Virus record (IMG/VR): IMGVR_UViG_2671180283_000029 | Span: 1-23,822 of that record | Length of the DNA: 23,822 nt | Strand: one strand, 5' to 3' | Source of the DNA: a virus | Lineage: Duplodnaviria; Heunggongvirae; Uroviricota; Caudoviricetes | Shown here: positions 14,331-21,007 of the stretch, piece by piece | Layout of the letters: each line of letters opens with the position of its first letter | How positions within the stretch are numbered: position 1 is the stretch's first letter | The notes under the pieces: model-generated | Told to the model about the DNA's origin: nothing | Seen by the model: only the letters and a program-made list of their open reading frames with translations | Databases searched by the model: none | Position numbers and translations under genes: made by a program

Positions 14331-15026
14331 CTAACCAAATCTGTTTATGTTGAATGGTACTGATGAGATCACTTTAGACTGGATATAAAGCAGAGCTAAC
14401 CCCTCTTTTTCGATGCTCCATGGTTGATAATTGGGGTTATCAGATAACACCATGATTTTGCTTCCAATTTTTTGAAGCCTTTTCACGTAGCATTCTCCAT
14501 CAAAACAAAATGCATAAATACCATCGCCATCAAAATAAGTTACTGTCTTATCAAGAAAAAGAAGGTCGCCAGGTGAGATTGTGGGAGCCATACTGTCTCC
14601 TCTGGCGTTACCTATTTCTATATTTTTGAATGCCCGATTCCCAACAAGACGTCGGGCATATTCAGGATCAAGTTCTATTGAGCGCACTACATCTATCAAG
14701 TCACCACGGACATGAGTTCCATCACCGCAACTAAACTCAACATCAAGGACATTAAACACGACACTATCTGTTCTTGTCTGGTGTTTCTCTTGCGAGGAAA
14801 AGGTTGGTGAGGAGTCTTCACCTAAGAACCAGGATTGTGGATAACCGCTAATCTCTGATAAATGCGCGAGCTTATCACTCCGTGGAAATGTTTTTCCTGT
14901 TGTCCAGTACTGCACTGATTGCGCACTCACACCTAACTTGCGGGCCAGTTGAGCCTGAGTCCATCCTTTTGCTTTCAGCATCGCGGCTATTCGATTTTCC
15001 GTGTTTTTGACGTTCTTCATGACCAA
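14331..15026 (-). CDS. cI: CI-type prophage repressor (HTH_XRE plus S24 LexA-like peptidase), 231 aa
   Basis: N-terminal HTH (KGWTQAQLARKLGVSAQSVQYWTTGKTFP); C-terminal S24 signature with GDSM serine and VKRL lysine; divergent from the cro-like gene. Confidence 0.85.
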   Translation of the reverse strand: MVMKNVKNTENRIAAMLKAKGWTQAQLARKLGVSAQSVQYWTTGKTFPRSDKLAHLSEISGYPQSWFLGEDSSPTFSSQEKHQTRTDSVVFNVLDVEFSCGDGTHVRGDLIDVVRSIELDPEYARRLVGNRAFKNIEIGNARGDSMAPTISPGDLLFLDKTVTYFDGDGIYAFCFDGECYVKRLQKIGSKIMVLSDNPNYQPWSIEKEGLALLYIQSKVISSVPFNINRFG

Positions 15027-16256: not shown

Positions 16257-16919
16257 ATGATCATTTCAAGACCAAATATTGATTCTGCAATTTCGGGACG
16301 TTACACTGTCTCCGCACCTTATAAAGCGGGTGCCGGGGGTCGCAGCCCGGAATTGTCAACGGCGATATATGACGCGCCAGCGTCTTTTTTATCGTCCGCG
16401 CTCACGCACGCCAGAATTATGGTGGGCTGGGCAGGGGAGCCGAAAGGCTCGCCGGTCTCCGTTGACGCCGGTACTGCGAACCCTGTTCAGTCTGCCACCA
16501 GTGAGTTTCGCAGCTCCGGTGGTGGAAGTTTTCCACAGTCAACGGAGGCTGCCATCATGGCTACTGTCCCAACTTCCCCATACCTGAAAATTGAAGTTGT
16601 CAACGGCAAGGCCGTTATTTTCTCCCTGCATGTTGCCTGCCACTTTAAGCGAATGCACCAGAACATCGTTGACAAAATCGAGTATCTGAACTGCTCACGC
16701 GAGTTTTTTACCCGCAATTTCATACCGGGTACTTATCACATCTACGGTGACTCCCTGCGTGGTTATTACATCACCCTTGATGGTCTGATGATGCTTCAGC
16801 TTGGGTTAAGTCTGCGCACAATGCGGTACTACGAGAGCTGTATTGAAGCATTCCATGAGGCTGAAACCGTCCAGGGTCACTCCGCGTTCCGTCGTAATCA
16901 ACGGGAGGTGCACCTATGA
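16257..16919 (+). CDS. Rha-domain protein with Gly/Ala/Pro/Ser-rich N-terminal extension, paralog 1 (220 aa)
   Basis: Segment KIEVVNGKAVIFSLHVACHFKRMHQNIVDKIE ... YYITLDGLMMLQLGLSLRTMRYYESCIEAFHEAE matches the Rha-domain pattern; ~90-aa low-complexity N-terminus; no SD before the 16257 ATG, so the start is uncertain. Confidence 0.55.
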   Translation: MIISRPNIDSAISGRYTVSAPYKAGAGGRSPELSTAIYDAPASFLSSALTHARIMVGWAGEPKGSPVSVDAGTANPVQSATSEFRSSGGGSFPQSTEAAIMATVPTSPYLKIEVVNGKAVIFSLHVACHFKRMHQNIVDKIEYLNCSREFFTRNFIPGTYHIYGDSLRGYYITLDGLMMLQLGLSLRTMRYYESCIEAFHEAETVQGHSAFRRNQREVHL

Positions 16920-17590
16920 TCCGCCACCAGCTTATTGATTCTGCAATTTCGGGACGGTACACTGTCCAAGCACCTTATAAAGCGGGTGCCGGGATTGGCG
17001 TCCTGGAAATGTTATCGGCGATATATGACGCGCCAGCGTCTTTTTTATCGTCTGCGTCTGCGCACACCCAAATTATGGTGGGCTGGACGGGGGCACCGAA
17101 AGGTGCGCCGGTTTCCGATAACGCCGGTTACGCCAACCCCGTTCAGTTCACCACCAGCGAAATTGGCGTTTCCGGTGGTGAAGGTAATTCACTGTTATCG
17201 GAGGCTGCCATCATGGCTACAGTCCCAACTTCCCCATACCTCAAAATCGAAGTCGTCAACGGCAAGGCCGTTATTTTCTCTTTGCATGTTGCCTGTCATT
17301 TCAAGCGCATGCACCAGAACATCGTCGACAAAATCGAGTATCTGAACTGCTCGCGTGAATTCTTCTCCCGTAATTTCATTCCGGGTACTTACCACGTGTA
17401 TGGCGATTCCTTGCGTGGTTATTACATCACTCTTGATGGCCTGATGATGCTTCAGCTTGGGTTAAGTCTGCGCACAATGCGGTACTACGAGAGCTGCATT
17501 GAGGCATTCCATGAAGCTGAAACCAGCCTGAATCATACAGCTTTCCGCTGTAATCAATGGGAGGTGCGCCCATGATTCGCCGCCTCGTTA
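16277..17590. repeat. tandem direct duplication (~660 bp x 2) spanning the two Rha-like paralogs
   Basis: Copy 1 (from ~16277) and copy 2 (from ~16933) align colinearly with high identity, including the downstream SD-ATGA junction (GGGAGGTGCACCTATGA vs GGGAGGTGCGCCCATGA). Confidence 0.8.
16916..17575 (+). CDS. Rha-domain protein with low-complexity N-terminal extension, paralog 2 (219 aa)
   Basis: Same architecture as paralog 1; GGGAGG SD; ATGA overlap with paralog 1. Confidence 0.55.
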   Translation: MIRHQLIDSAISGRYTVQAPYKAGAGIGVLEMLSAIYDAPASFLSSASAHTQIMVGWTGAPKGAPVSDNAGYANPVQFTTSEIGVSGGEGNSLLSEAAIMATVPTSPYLKIEVVNGKAVIFSLHVACHFKRMHQNIVDKIEYLNCSREFFSRNFIPGTYHVYGDSLRGYYITLDGLMMLQLGLSLRTMRYYESCIEAFHEAETSLNHTAFRCNQWEVRP

Positions 17591-17805
17591 ATTCTCTGTA
17601 TCACCGATACAACCGTTGCCCCCGTGTGGGGCAGTGGTTCGCCACCAGCGACGGTCGCGTTCTGCGGGTTTGCCTGGTCAGCACCGAAAGCCAGAAAGTT
17701 GTGTGTGAATTACTGGGGCGTAACTACACCATCAGTTACCCACTAGTGGCGTTTCAGTCCGGAAAAATGTTTAAACGCCTGGGAGGTGGCTATGCGTCCG
17801 TCTGA
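17572..17805 (+). CDS. hypothetical small protein (77 aa)
   Basis: ATG at 17572 with GGGAGG SD, overlapping the stop of Rha paralog 2; the track's longer version starts at 17557. Confidence 0.4.
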   Translation: MIRRLVNSLYHRYNRCPRVGQWFATSDGRVLRVCLVSTESQKVVCELLGRNYTISYPLVAFQSGKMFKRLGGGYASV

Positions 17806-18700
17806 TCTTCTGCTCGATTTTGGGCATCCGGTTGCTTATTACCCTGGGCTCGTTAAATACATGGGAAGTCCGCACGCTGTTATTTTCTTTGGTCAGATTT
17901 TTTACTGGCAGGATAAAGCACATGCAGCGGAAGGCGTACATAAAACGCGTGAAGAGATACAACACGAAACCGGACTTACATTTGAACAACAGGCTGTAGC
18001 GCGTAAGCATCTTGTGTCCAGAGGCATTTTGGTTGAAACCAACAAGCGTCTTGAGCACAAAATGTTCTACCGTATAGATTGTGAGCGCCTTAATGAAATT
18101 ATCAATGAAAACAATCAGTTTTCCCGAAATGGGGAAACCCGTTTTCGGGAAACTGTAAAACCCAATTTCGCGGAGGAGGGAAAGCCTTCACCGCGGACAC
18201 GGGAAACCCCTCGCCGCGGTGAAGGGAAAACCAATTTCGATCTTACAGAGATTACAACAGAGATTACTTCAGAGAGTACTACAGAGAGTAAAAACACTAT
18301 TGGCGCATCCGCTGACGCGTCTGCACCAGCGCGTTCTGCCCGACAGGAATATTCACCGGAATTTGAACAGGCATGGCAGGAATATCCCAAACGTGCTGGT
18401 GGCAATTCCAAGTCAGCAGCCTTCAAAGCCTGGAAAGCACGTATCAGGGAGGGAATAAAACCGGAGAACATGCTTGATGGCGTGAAGCGGTATGCCGCCT
18501 GGGTACGTGCTACAGGAAATACCGGCACACAGTTCGTGAAGCAGGCTGCGACGTTCTTTGGACCCGATCGTCACTTCGAAGATTACTGGCAACAGCCAGC
18601 CGCTCACGGAGGTGGGCGACAGCGACAGGTCGATGTCCTGGCTGGCCTGGGAGCCATGTCTGACAAATTCGGTAAATCCAGTAACAAATTGACATTCTGA
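17786..18700 (+). CDS. phage replication initiator (O-like), 304 aa, with internal origin-like repeats
   Basis: GGAGGTGG SD; lies immediately upstream of the DnaC-like and DnaB-like genes; central region is encoded by direct repeats and iterons as in lambda O. Confidence 0.6.
   Translation: MAMRPSDLLLDFGHPVAYYPGLVKYMGSPHAVIFFGQIFYWQDKAHAAEGVHKTREEIQHETGLTFEQQAVARKHLVSRGILVETNKRLEHKMFYRIDCERLNEIINENNQFSRNGETRFRETVKPNFAEEGKPSPRTRETPRRGEGKTNFDLTEITTEITSESTTESKNTIGASADASAPARSARQEYSPEFEQAWQEYPKRAGGNSKSAAFKAWKARIREGIKPENMLDGVKRYAAWVRATGNTGTQFVKQAATFFGPDRHFEDYWQQPAAHGGGRQRQVDVLAGLGAMSDKFGKSSNKLTF
18132..18290. repeat. putative origin of replication: direct repeats and four ~11-bp iterons inside the initiator gene
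   Basis: GGGAAACCC at 18132 and 18201; AAAACC(C)AATTTCG at 18157 and 18227; inverted repeat CTTCACCGCGG/CCGCGGTGAAG at 18187-18225; four tandem iterons (ACAGAGATTAC, AACAGAGATTAC, TTCAGAGAGTAC, TACAGAGAGTA) at 18245-18290. Confidence 0.5.
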
Positions 18701-18710
18701 GGTGACAGCG

Positions 18711-19610
18711 ATGATGACGATTGACCAACGTGAGAAACAAACAAGACTACAGGCGCGAATGGATGAGTTACGGGCAGAAATGGATGAGTTACGGGCAGAG
18801 ATTGCATTTGCTCAGAAGGGCGAAAAGCCATGGCCTTATCGTTCCTGCCTGATGCGTGAAGGTCGCGGATATTGCGAAAAACACGGTAAATATCGTACGC
18901 ATATACTGGTGTGGATCGATCGTAATGGCGAGGACAGAGAAAAAATTTCATGCTGCCCTGACTGCTTGATCGCTGAGGCCAGTGATTTGACCATGGAACT
19001 GTCGTCCCTCAAGGCGGAAGAACTGACTGATAACGCCGGAATTGCTCTGCGTTTTCGGGACTGCGAGTTTGATAATTATCTGGAGGTTAATCCTGACGCA
19101 GCCAGAAATCTTGCGGCCTGTCGCCGCTATGCGGAGAACTGGCCAGATATGCTGGAGAACGGTACCAGTCTTGTTATGACCGGCAGTTGCGGTACCGGGA
19201 AAAATCATCTGGCGGTATCAATGGCAAAACACATCATCCGTAACTATCTGGCCAGTGTGGAGATCACCGACGTGATGCGCCTTACCCGGGCTGTGAAAAA
19301 CTGCTGGCGGAATGACAGTGAAAAAACAGCGGATGACGTCATTGAGCATTATGCGTCACTGGATTTGCTGATTGTCGACGAAGTCGGCGTTCAGTTTGGC
19401 AGTGCGGCTGAAATGGCCATTTTGCAGGAAATTATCAATGCCCGGTATGAGGGTATTTTGCCAACTATCCTGATCAGCAACCTTTCACCGGAAGAATTGT
19501 GGGCGTTCATCAGTCCCCGGATTGCCGACAGGATCACCGATGGCGGGCGCAACTGGTTGTCGTTTAACTGGCCCAGCTACCGTTCTCGTATCGGAGGTGT
19601 TGCCGCATGA
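18711..19610 (+). CDS. DnaC-like helicase loader (IstB-type AAA+ ATPase)
   Basis: Walker A GSCGTGKNHLAVSMA, Walker B-like LLIVDEVG; N-terminal Cys4 cluster (CEKHGK...CCPDC); ATG at 18711 with GAGGTG SD (track start at 18702 is GTG). Confidence 0.85.
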   Translation: MMTIDQREKQTRLQARMDELRAEMDELRAEIAFAQKGEKPWPYRSCLMREGRGYCEKHGKYRTHILVWIDRNGEDREKISCCPDCLIAEASDLTMELSSLKAEELTDNAGIALRFRDCEFDNYLEVNPDAARNLAACRRYAENWPDMLENGTSLVMTGSCGTGKNHLAVSMAKHIIRNYLASVEITDVMRLTRAVKNCWRNDSEKTADDVIEHYASLDLLIVDEVGVQFGSAAEMAILQEIINARYEGILPTILISNLSPEELWAFISPRIADRITDGGRNWLSFNWPSYRSRIGGVAA

Positions 19611-21007
19611 CCAGCCAGAACACCCCGGCATGGCGTAACGATGACCTGGAAGGCGCTGTCATCGGTGCGTTTTTTCTGCGTGGGGCCGATCCGGAAGTGA
19701 TGGATATTCTGGCCACACTTCCGGCGGATGTATTTTTTGTGCGTCAGTACCGGGATATTTACGCGGGGATTTGCAGACAGGCTCGCATATCCGGCGTCAT
19801 TGACCCCGTACTGCTGTGCAATGAGATGCCGGAACTTGCCCCGGTGATTACCGACACCGGACGCAAAACCTGGGTGAAGTCTTCACTGGAGCACTATGTC
19901 GCAGCGTTGCGGCGCAATGCCGCACTGCGCGATGCAGAAAAAACACTGACTGAAGCATTACAGAATTTACGTGATGCGTATACCTGTGAAGCAGCCGAGG
20001 ATGCCCTGAAGGATGCGCAGAACATGATGGCCTCACTGTCGACCGGAAAGGGCGTCATTCAGCCGGTTCACATTGATGATGTCCTTCCGGAAGTGGTCGA
20101 CCGTGTTGAATGCCGCAATCAGGGACTGGAGAAATCCAGGGCGCTGATGACCGGTATTGATGAACTGGACGCAAAAACGGGCGGTATGGAGCCCGGAGAC
20201 CTGGTATTCATTGCCGCCCGTCCTTCGATGGGGAAAACCGAACTTGCGCTGGACATCATCGACAAGGTGACTGAGCAGGGGCATGGCGTGCTTCTGTTCA
20301 CCATGGAGATGGCGAACATCCAGATTGGTGAACGTATGGTGTCTGCTGCCGGTGGAATGCCGGTATCCCGTCTTAAGTCTGTTGCCCGTTTTGAAGATGA
20401 AGACTGGGCGCGTTTCTCGCAGGGCGTGGGACGAATGACGGGGCGTAATATCTGGATGGTGGACCAGGCAAACCTGACCATTGATGAGATATGTGCAACC
20501 ACGAAGCACCACCGGATGAAACACCCGGAAACGGCGCTGGTGGTGGTCGATTACCTCGGCCTGATTAAAACCCGCAGCACGGGGCGTCACGACCTTGCGG
20601 TGGGGGAAATCTCAAAGGGACTAAAAAGCCTGGCAAAATCCGGCGGTTTTCCGCTGATTGCTCTGAGCCAGCTCTCCCGCGGTGTGGAATCCAGACCCAA
20701 TAAACGCCCCATGAACTCGGACCTGAAAAACTCAGGGGAAATAGAGGCGGATGCAGACATCATTCTGATGCTTTACAGGGATGAGGTGTACAACCCGGAG
20801 ACACAGGCGAGAGGCATAGCAGAAATCAACATCACGAAACAGCGTAATGGTACGCTGGGTACCATTTACCGGCGTTTTCATAACGGGCATTTTCTGCCTG
20901 TGGACCAGGAGAGTGCCCGGGTTCTTTCCACTCCCATGACGCCGGGCAATCCGCGCAGATACAGCAATAACCGCATGTCGGGTAGTAAAACGGAGCGTTT
21001 ATTTTGA
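19607..21007 (+). CDS. DnaB-family replicative DNA helicase (466 aa)
   Basis: Walker A ARPSMGKTELALD, Walker B-like VVVDYLGL, and RecA-like C-terminal pattern (ALSQLSRGVESR) in DnaB order; coupled to the upstream loader gene. Confidence 0.9.
   Translation: MTSQNTPAWRNDDLEGAVIGAFFLRGADPEVMDILATLPADVFFVRQYRDIYAGICRQARISGVIDPVLLCNEMPELAPVITDTGRKTWVKSSLEHYVAALRRNAALRDAEKTLTEALQNLRDAYTCEAAEDALKDAQNMMASLSTGKGVIQPVHIDDVLPEVVDRVECRNQGLEKSRALMTGIDELDAKTGGMEPGDLVFIAARPSMGKTELALDIIDKVTEQGHGVLLFTMEMANIQIGERMVSAAGGMPVSRLKSVARFEDEDWARFSQGVGRMTGRNIWMVDQANLTIDEICATTKHHRMKHPETALVVVDYLGLIKTRSTGRHDLAVGEISKGLKSLAKSGGFPLIALSQLSRGVESRPNKRPMNSDLKNSGEIEADADIILMLYRDEVYNPETQARGIAEINITKQRNGTLGTIYRRFHNGHFLPVDQESARVLSTPMTPGNPRRYSNNRMSGSKTERLF

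Follow-up and report, generated by a model that had tools for sequence, protein, structure and literature searches.

A probable theta-replication origin within the initiator gene of an Eru7-type Escherichia coli prophage

The stretch of DNA analysed here, positions 1 to 23,822 of the IMG/VR virus record IMGVR_UViG_2671180283_000029 (hereafter the window, meaning all 23,822 nucleotides), was 100% identical to a chromosomal prophage of Escherichia coli Z1323HEC0393, and its replication initiator gene carries in its middle part two successive sets of DNA repeats that are considered here as a candidate replication origin. The initiator gene belongs to an early-right operon with cI-like, cro-like, helicase-loader, and helicase genes, and it is preceded on its 5' side by a LexA/cI-type repressor gene and by cro-like, Rha, and ash genes. 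The features of the locus are as follows:

17792-18700, plus strand: replication-initiator gene, 302 aa (open reading frame (ORF); start of the Prokaryotic Genome Annotation Pipeline (PGAP) in an identical genome; PHROG 270)
17792-18112, plus strand: coding region of the N-terminal domain, presumed iteron-binding winged helix (AlphaFold model, Foldseek)
18120-18240, no strand assigned: putative iteron array, five in-phase 23-bp units starting at 18123, 18146, 18169, 18192, and 18215
18116-18155, no strand assigned: dyad 1, TTTCCCGAAA..GGGGAAACCC..TTTTCGGGAAA, centred on unit 1, inner pairs kept in 12 relatives
18185-18225, no strand assigned: dyad 2, centred on the GGGAAACCC of unit 4, containing the 11-bp inverted repeat
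18245-18292, no strand assigned: four tandem 12-mers (ACAGAGATTACA, ACAGAGATTACT, TCAGAGAGTACT, ACAGAGAGTAAA), proposed A-rich unwinding element and linker-coding sequence
18293-18324, no strand assigned: start of the shared C-terminal module (AACACTATTGGCGCATCC...), placed by homology breakpoints and a palindrome
18296-18700, plus strand: coding region of the C-terminal domain (YSPEFEQAWQEYPKR...), presumed loader/helicase contact, shared with other initiators
18711-19610, plus strand: DnaC-like helicase-loader gene (Pfam IstB_IS21 and Bac_DnaA; PHROG 50; PGAP start)
19607-21007, plus strand: DnaB-like replicative helicase gene (Pfam DnaB_C, 7.8e-74; TIGR00665)

The initiator protein, for which an alternative GTG start was found at 17786, begins with a predicted winged-helix domain, which is followed by the linker encoded by the repeats and then by the C-terminal domain. 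It matched PHROG 270 ('replication initiation protein', 1e-65), gave no hit in Pfam (E ≤ 0.01) or NCBIfam, and returned noise only in a sequence search of the PDB. The AlphaFold model of the N-terminal domain (predicted local distance difference test score of 80.6) had the topology H-H-H-E-H-H-E-E-H, and its Foldseek matches in the PDB were all winged-helix DNA binders at weak scores (E ~1e-2, template modelling score 0.5-0.6), including a plasmid Rep-DNA complex and the N-domain of DnaD. The C-terminal domain matched PHROG 1701 and 26426, its module carries the GC-rich palindrome GCTGACGCGTCTGC at its start (18311-18324), and it was 96-99% shared with initiators that have other N-terminal domains, with DnaC-like and DnaB-like genes following it each time. 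The gene had been termed O-like in an earlier reading made from the sequence only (the sequence-only reading), which holds for its position and role and fails for its sequence: no hit to Pfam Phage_rep_O (PF04492) was obtained, BLASTP against lambda O gave nothing significant (lowest E = 0.024, over 26 residues), and similarity to P22 gp18 was not detectable by sequence. In a control search, P22 gp18 itself matched PF04492 (6.9e-38).

The repeats had been described in that reading as two 39-bp units with conserved ends, an 11-bp perfect inverted repeat, and four tandem iterons of about 11 bp, and all of the quoted sequences were found in the window at the positions given. The two 39-nt stretches start 69 bp apart (GGGAAACCC...AAAACCCAATTTCG at 18132-18170 and GGGAAACCC...AAAACCAATTTCG at 18201-18239) and correspond to units 1+2 and 4+5 in a run of five 23-bp units kept in phase, with a consensus of roughly CGsGAAnnnGGGAAAnCCnnTTT, with Tandem Repeats Finder (TRF) reporting the 23-bp period at 18169-18229. 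In the inverted repeat, CTTCACCGCGG (18187-18197) complements CCGCGGTGAAG (18215-18225); it is built around two palindromic CCGCGG hexamers, a hexamer that recurs in the direct repeat, and is nested within longer imperfect arms of 19 nt (84% complementarity). The 39-bp stretches are not separate units: they and the inverted repeat are pieces of a single five-unit array at 18123-18237. The short tandem repeats of the CAGAGATTAC type at 18245-18292 are present in four copies as described, with a period of 12 bp (3.7 copies by TRF) in place of 11 bp. They encode TEITTEITSESTTES within a 304-codon ORF.

These repeats are far beyond chance. Autocorrelation of the array gave z = 7.9 at lag 23 and z = 6.0 at lag 46, GGGAAANCC occurred at five sites in the 23.8-kb window against 0.75 expected (four of the five within 18132-18232), and the 12-mer motif had six matches against 1.1 expected, four of them in the array. 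TRF found only four tandem arrays in the entire window, two of which are the 23-bp and 12-bp repeats, and no rival origin candidate was found among the others. No DnaA box (TTATCCACA with up to one mismatch) was present between 16538 and 22305, and a promoter and terminator scan returned chance level only. The sole perfect DnaA box of the window lies at 14836-14844 on the minus strand, inside the cI-like repressor gene and far from the array.

Constraint on the 23-bp units was evident from their relation to the reading frame. The five unit starts fall in codon phases 1, 0, 2, 1, and 0, i.e., in all three phases, and the GGGAAA core is consequently read as Gly-Glu, Arg-Glu, or Gly-Lys by phase; therefore, no peptide repeat can explain the array, indicating that it acts at the DNA level. 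Homologues of the N-terminal domain (54-100% identity) were collected from 87 loci in Yersinia, Morganella, Proteus, Burkholderia, Trinickia, Caballeronia, and IMG/VR. Lag 23 was the top autocorrelation of the zone between the N-terminal domain and the 12-mers in 14 of 16 homologue lineages (mean z 5.9), ranging from Enterobacterales to Burkholderiales. The number of units was 3-7 with some of them inverted, and their consensus was related but drifting (GGGAAAnCC..TTTCG in the window compared to GGGAAAAGTCCATTTCGCGAAA in a Burkholderia metagenome-assembled genome). The absence of repeats from homologous initiator genes, which the sequence-only reading had named as a ground for refutation, was not encountered, as every homologue examined keeps such repeats. 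In phiP27 and PhiR49_2, the C-terminal half of the gene had 96-99% DNA identity with the window and was joined to HTH_36-type N-terminal domains with very different repeats at the same position. The repeats thus co-vary with the N-terminal domain as expected of initiator-binding sites, and the five 23-bp units are most likely the initiator-specific iterons.

The adjacent 12-mer array is the AT-richest part of the repeats (GC 0.33), with an A-rich sense strand (AT skew +0.26 to +0.35). Nearest-neighbour calculation put the stability minimum for 40-mers in the initiator gene at a start position of 18262 (-45.4 kcal/mol; window mean -53.1, standard deviation 4.3). The stability minimum coincided with the 12-mers in all six relatives compared, four of which are Burkholderiales of ~60% GC where it lay up to 4 standard deviations from the mean, and the same measure located the AT-rich part of the annotated origins in the lambda O gene (nt 436) and P22 gene 18 (nt 435). 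An AT-rich unwinding element had been anticipated just downstream of the short repeats; the DNA 3' of the 12-mers is GC-rich (0.55-0.63) and has no additional element of this kind, and the 12-mers themselves are the AT-rich stretch. Codon choice pointed to selection on the DNA of this array as well, since threonine was encoded by ACA or ACT in 87 of 88 cases within 12-mer arrays compared to 82 of 198 elsewhere in the same genes (Fisher p = 2.6e-24, for lineages that are not fully independent), and the A/T-ending codons were kept even in GC-rich hosts (60% GC). The encoded peptide varies (TEIT, TENT, TYIT, TDIT, TKTT, and SEST) in a reading frame that is almost always Thr-Glu-x-Thr, and a constraint on the linker peptide probably acts on the 12-mers too. 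Taken as a functional element, the 12-mers are most likely both the unwinding element and the code for the linker.

The 12-mers were much more widely distributed than the 23-bp units of the window. E. coli prophages with an unrelated N-terminal domain (MSRYAPTPEV...) carried three to four copies of TACAGAGATTAC directly before the same C-terminal domain, and scanning IMG/VR for the exact pattern of two copies in tandem identified at least 120 contigs (loci L100-L219). In almost all of the matches listed, the array lay at residue 125-200 of an ORF of 250-350 residues, and the initiators listed comprised 28 N-domain subclusters at 60% identity and at least 15 C-domain BLAST clusters, some of the C-terminal domains being Phg_2220_C or DnaD-like. 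Inspected representatives of the 28 subclusters differed in their upstream repeats, with 23 bp as the top lag in most. The layout was also identified in Staphylococcus phage 96 (L221, 1480-1600) and Bacillus phage BMBtp2 (L222, 1470-1630); in the latter, two reading frames of the motif are used (ETT and QRI), and the C-terminal domain has the YSPEFE..W..YPK motif of the window protein. The sequence ACAGAGAnTAC is therefore common to many unrelated N- and C-terminal domains, some from Gram-positive phages, and no description of it was found in the searchable literature, where string searches gave unrelated primers or nothing.

This distribution bears on the assignment made by the sequence-only reading, in which the initiator binds the four short tandem repeats as its iterons, with the inverted repeat and the GGGAAACCC units as accessory sites and an unwinding element further to the 3' side. 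In favour of it, no tandem repeat is cleaner by TRF than the 12-mers, which are strongly conserved at the DNA level, and all associated N-terminal domains share a helix of the [LIV]xQxxYW type, so that a common binding surface is conceivable. Against this, the same 12-mer follows N-terminal domains without detectable similarity to each other and is joined to all of those C-domain clusters, it does not co-vary with the initiator as the 23-bp units do, the DNA 3' of it is GC-rich, and it holds the position, polarity, and stability minimum of the AT-rich region of lambda and P22. We consider it unlikely that the 12-mers are the initiator-specific sites.

Homology between phages breaks at the same place. 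The stretch shared with phiP27 and PhiR49_2 starts at query 511-513 (window 18296-18298), that shared with another class of E. coli prophages starts at query 472 (window 18257), inside the 12-mer array, and some part of the initiator gene was matched by 407 of 5426 complete E. coli genomes compared to just 101 matching at least 80% of the gene. The array is therefore at a mosaic joint between domain modules. This agrees with a further explanation in which there is no origin at the site: the array would be a low-complexity inter-domain linker and slippage-tolerant recombination joint, its repeats neutral by-products, and the true origin elsewhere. Besides the breakpoints exactly at or inside the array, such an account would be in line with the 12-mer copy number (2-5 in relatives, including 3-5 among near-identical E. 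coli phages and prophages) and with frameshifts in the array zone of some metagenomic relatives. Single in-frame duplications cannot, however, give a 23-bp period, which is moreover kept across two bacterial orders as the unit sequence diverges. The codon choice of the 12-mers is also strongly non-neutral even in the 60% GC hosts, and the window offers no alternative repeat array, comparable candidate, or DnaA-box cluster. This explanation, with neutral repeats and the origin elsewhere, was judged quite improbable.

Several observations on individual relatives concern this joint. In one E. coli prophage initiator (L006, 2501-2948) the 12-mers and most of the C-terminal domain were shared at 87% identity, the last ~100 nt diverged, and no DnaC-like or DnaB-like genes followed, which would fit the extreme C-terminus setting the choice of helicase system. 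P22 (L220, 2960-2990) carries CCCCCTTACCCCC with the palindrome CCCCCTAAAGGGGG directly after the AT-rich part of gene 18, and two relatives of the window initiator have a similar motif after their 12-mers (L008, 3455-3490; L017, ~2050-2075), which suggests that a C-terminal module of the P22 type is attached at this position. In several metagenomic relatives the N- and C-terminal domains are in different frames with the shift inside the iteron zone (L008, 3001-4037; L009 and L010, 3001-3700; L011, 3001-3824). L009, which together with L010 represents two independent samples, has a run of six G where the in-frame Burkholderia genome L015 has four. These shifts could be sequencing error, decay, or real variation, and programmed frameshifting was not adopted since the protein search with the N-terminal domain, through a bias of the tool, returned only products that were short, truncated, or frameshifted.

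The 23-bp units also contain dyad symmetry. Folding of the single-stranded DNA gave two hairpins, at 18116-18155 and 18185-18225, each centred on the GGGAAACCC core (z = -6.6 versus shuffles), and across 12 relatives 80% of cells were paired compared to 39-58% in slid controls. The inner pairs were invariant, the outer pairs, which hold the 11-bp inverted repeat, were unpaired in half of the 12 relatives, and most E. coli relatives have CCGCGGAGAAG, a 10/11 match of the inverted repeat. The perfect 11-bp repeat of the window is therefore lineage-specific rather than a general feature, and the conserved feature is the hyphenated dyad symmetry within units, as in the iterons of lambda (PMC6022878). 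A structural-RNA or cruciform-specific reading was dropped, the dyads being kept mostly by invariant bases with few compensatory changes. It is very improbable that the repeats are solely regulatory, i.e., initiator sites for autoregulation, for titration or exclusion of related phages, or RNA hairpins modulating initiator translation, despite the two strong hairpins, the partly conserved dyads, and the inhibition of related phages by cloned lambda origin regions described in PMC3349717, because the dyads lack compensatory change, an Rfam search of the region gave no match, and the adjacent conserved stability minimum and fixed 23-bp phasing would be left unexplained; a regulatory role could nevertheless exist alongside origin function.

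The arrangement was compared with known origins. The lambda origin lies inside O and consists of four iterons of 18 bp, with successive start-to-start distances of 20, 24, and 23 bp, followed by a 39-bp AT-rich region (PMC6022878), and the annotated origin in P22 gene 18 has the same layout. The lambda-like arrangement proposed by the sequence-only reading was borne out in both order and polarity: the repeats occupy the central, linker-coding part of the initiator gene (codons 110-149 here compared to 117-145 in lambda O) and are followed by the AT-rich part (codons 110-167 compared to 117-158 for the whole). The window further resembles lambda and P22 in having four to five repeats ~20-24 bp apart with internal dyad symmetry, in a promoter-distal, A-rich, and strand-asymmetric AT-rich stretch that is the least stable DNA of the gene, and in a division where specificity would go with the N-terminal domain and helicase recruitment with the C-terminal domain. 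In lambda, in-frame deletions in the AT-rich region abolish the origin with the O protein still working (PMC6022878), and this region is purine-asymmetric, the exact sequence of unwinding elements being of importance (PMC5043065). The window differs in its strict 23-bp spacing, in an AT-rich part made of tandem 12-mers of conserved sequence rather than a non-repetitive A-tract-like stretch, and, compared to lambda with P and the host DnaB, in its DnaC-like loader and the phage's own DnaB-like helicase. Homology of the 12-mers with the lambda and P22 AT-rich regions is not claimed, as ACAAAAGACA aligned only loosely with ACAGAGAnTAC, and a single-linkage connection of the lambda O C-terminus to the main C-domain cluster was probably a clustering artefact and was left unused.

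A second parallel was identified in SPP1, whose oriL inside gene 38 has repeats followed by an AT-rich unwinding element, with a 356-bp fragment necessary and sufficient in vitro, and requires an organiser, a loader, and a DnaB-type helicase (PMC5737612). The trio of G38P organiser, G39P loader, and G40P helicase matches the module of the window, the SPP1 unwinding element is likewise an in-frame, A-rich short tandem repeat, and some initiators carrying the 12-mers have the C-terminal domain of G38P (Pfam Phg_2220_C). SPP1 differs in its short repeats (~9-11 bp compared to 23-bp units) and in having no ACAGAGAnTAC motif, and the window protein has no Phg_2220_C domain. Iteron plasmid origins (RK2 oriV, P1, F, and pSC101) and the 13-mers of oriC offer a further parallel, with phased, initiator-specific iterons beside an AT-rich unwinding element of short repeats in which the exact sequence is important (PMC5043065). 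The plasmid origins differ in being intergenic, in initiators of other families, and in usually carrying DnaA boxes, none of which are near the array of the window. A literature search for comparable embedded origins found only SPP1 and a Francisella phage.

The initiator gene was 95-97% identical at the DNA level to those of Stx1a- and Stx2a-converting phages, including 95.1% identity over 91% with Stx2_14040 (LC567818.1) and 97% over 100% with LC567819.1. Stx2_14040 is the representative of the 'Eru7' replication type (PMC8951638), in a typing scheme that defines types by two genes next to cI (Eru papers including PMC8951638), and it shares with the window the gene order cI, cro-like, Rha or Roi, ..., initiator, DnaC-like, and DnaB-like. 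On this near-identity and matching gene order, the replication region of the window was assigned to the Eru7 type.

The repeats, their phasing and conservation, their co-variation with the N-terminal domain, the DNA-level constraint, and the stability minimum form the observed basis for reading 18120-18292 as the theta-replication origin of the prophage, embedded in the linker-coding part of the initiator gene in the manner of lambda, P22, and SPP1, to which we assign a probability of about 0.72. According to this proposal, the presumed winged-helix N-terminal domain would bind the five 23-bp-phased units at 18123-18237, and the resulting nucleoprotein complex, together with transcription through the gene and negative supercoiling, would open the adjacent four-copy 12-mer array at 18245-18292. 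The C-terminal domain would then recruit the phage's own loader (DnaC-like) and helicase (DnaB-like), whose genes follow directly on the 3' side. In addition, the 12-mers code for the flexible Thr/Glu-rich linker, and homology between phages with different initiators breaks at or inside their array.

Several points weigh against an embedded origin of this form. Origin activity, initiator binding, and strand opening are properties that we infer for an Eru7-type module, and neither an origin nor iterons are described in the two Eru typing papers (including PMC8951638). The N-terminal domain has weak structural matches (E ~1e-2), the 12-mer array of the window is just modestly AT-rich at GC 0.33, and its stability minimum is almost tied with 18091-18130 (-45.5 versus -45.4 kcal/mol). 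The near-constant Thr-Glu-x-Thr frame may indicate a role of the 12-mers at the peptide level, and their conservation exceeds what AT-richness needs, so that they could be a binding site.

A broader proposal is advanced only tentatively. The window may belong to a very large, hitherto undescribed class of phage origins in Proteobacteria and Firmicutes in which 3-7 initiator-specific repeats on a strict 23-bp period are followed by 2-5 near-universal 12-mers (ACAGAGAnTAC), with selection acting on the 12-mers at the levels of both DNA and linker peptide. In such a class the 12-mer could be more than AT-rich DNA, namely a specific recognition element (e.g., one through which the initiator, loader, or helicase captures a single strand), as well as a shared joint at which phages swap the domains for origin recognition and helicase recruitment.

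Two further duplications were observed among the neighbouring genes. The DnaC-like gene contains, close to its 5' end, two perfect 21-bp copies of AATGGATGAGTTACGGGCAGA in tandem (18758-18799) that encode MDELRAE twice, and the Stx1_14040 homologue is 21 bp shorter (879 compared to 900 bp); the number of copies is therefore probably polymorphic. Immediately 5' of the initiator gene, two adjacent overlapping 'ash family' paralogues (16257-16919, 220 aa; 16916-17575, 219 aa) have nearly identical C-terminal halves, i.e., a tandem gene duplication.

For the Eru7 module, which is common in Shiga-toxin phages, these results provide a concrete candidate origin, of relevance as toxin output depends on phage replication. 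They also correct which repeats matter for mutation or footprinting, by distinguishing the 23-bp units from the 12-mers. The common 12-mer and the fixed 23-bp phasing suggest a rule for finding origins in many unannotated phage initiator genes and, in addition, a mechanism by which initiator domains may be swapped between phages.

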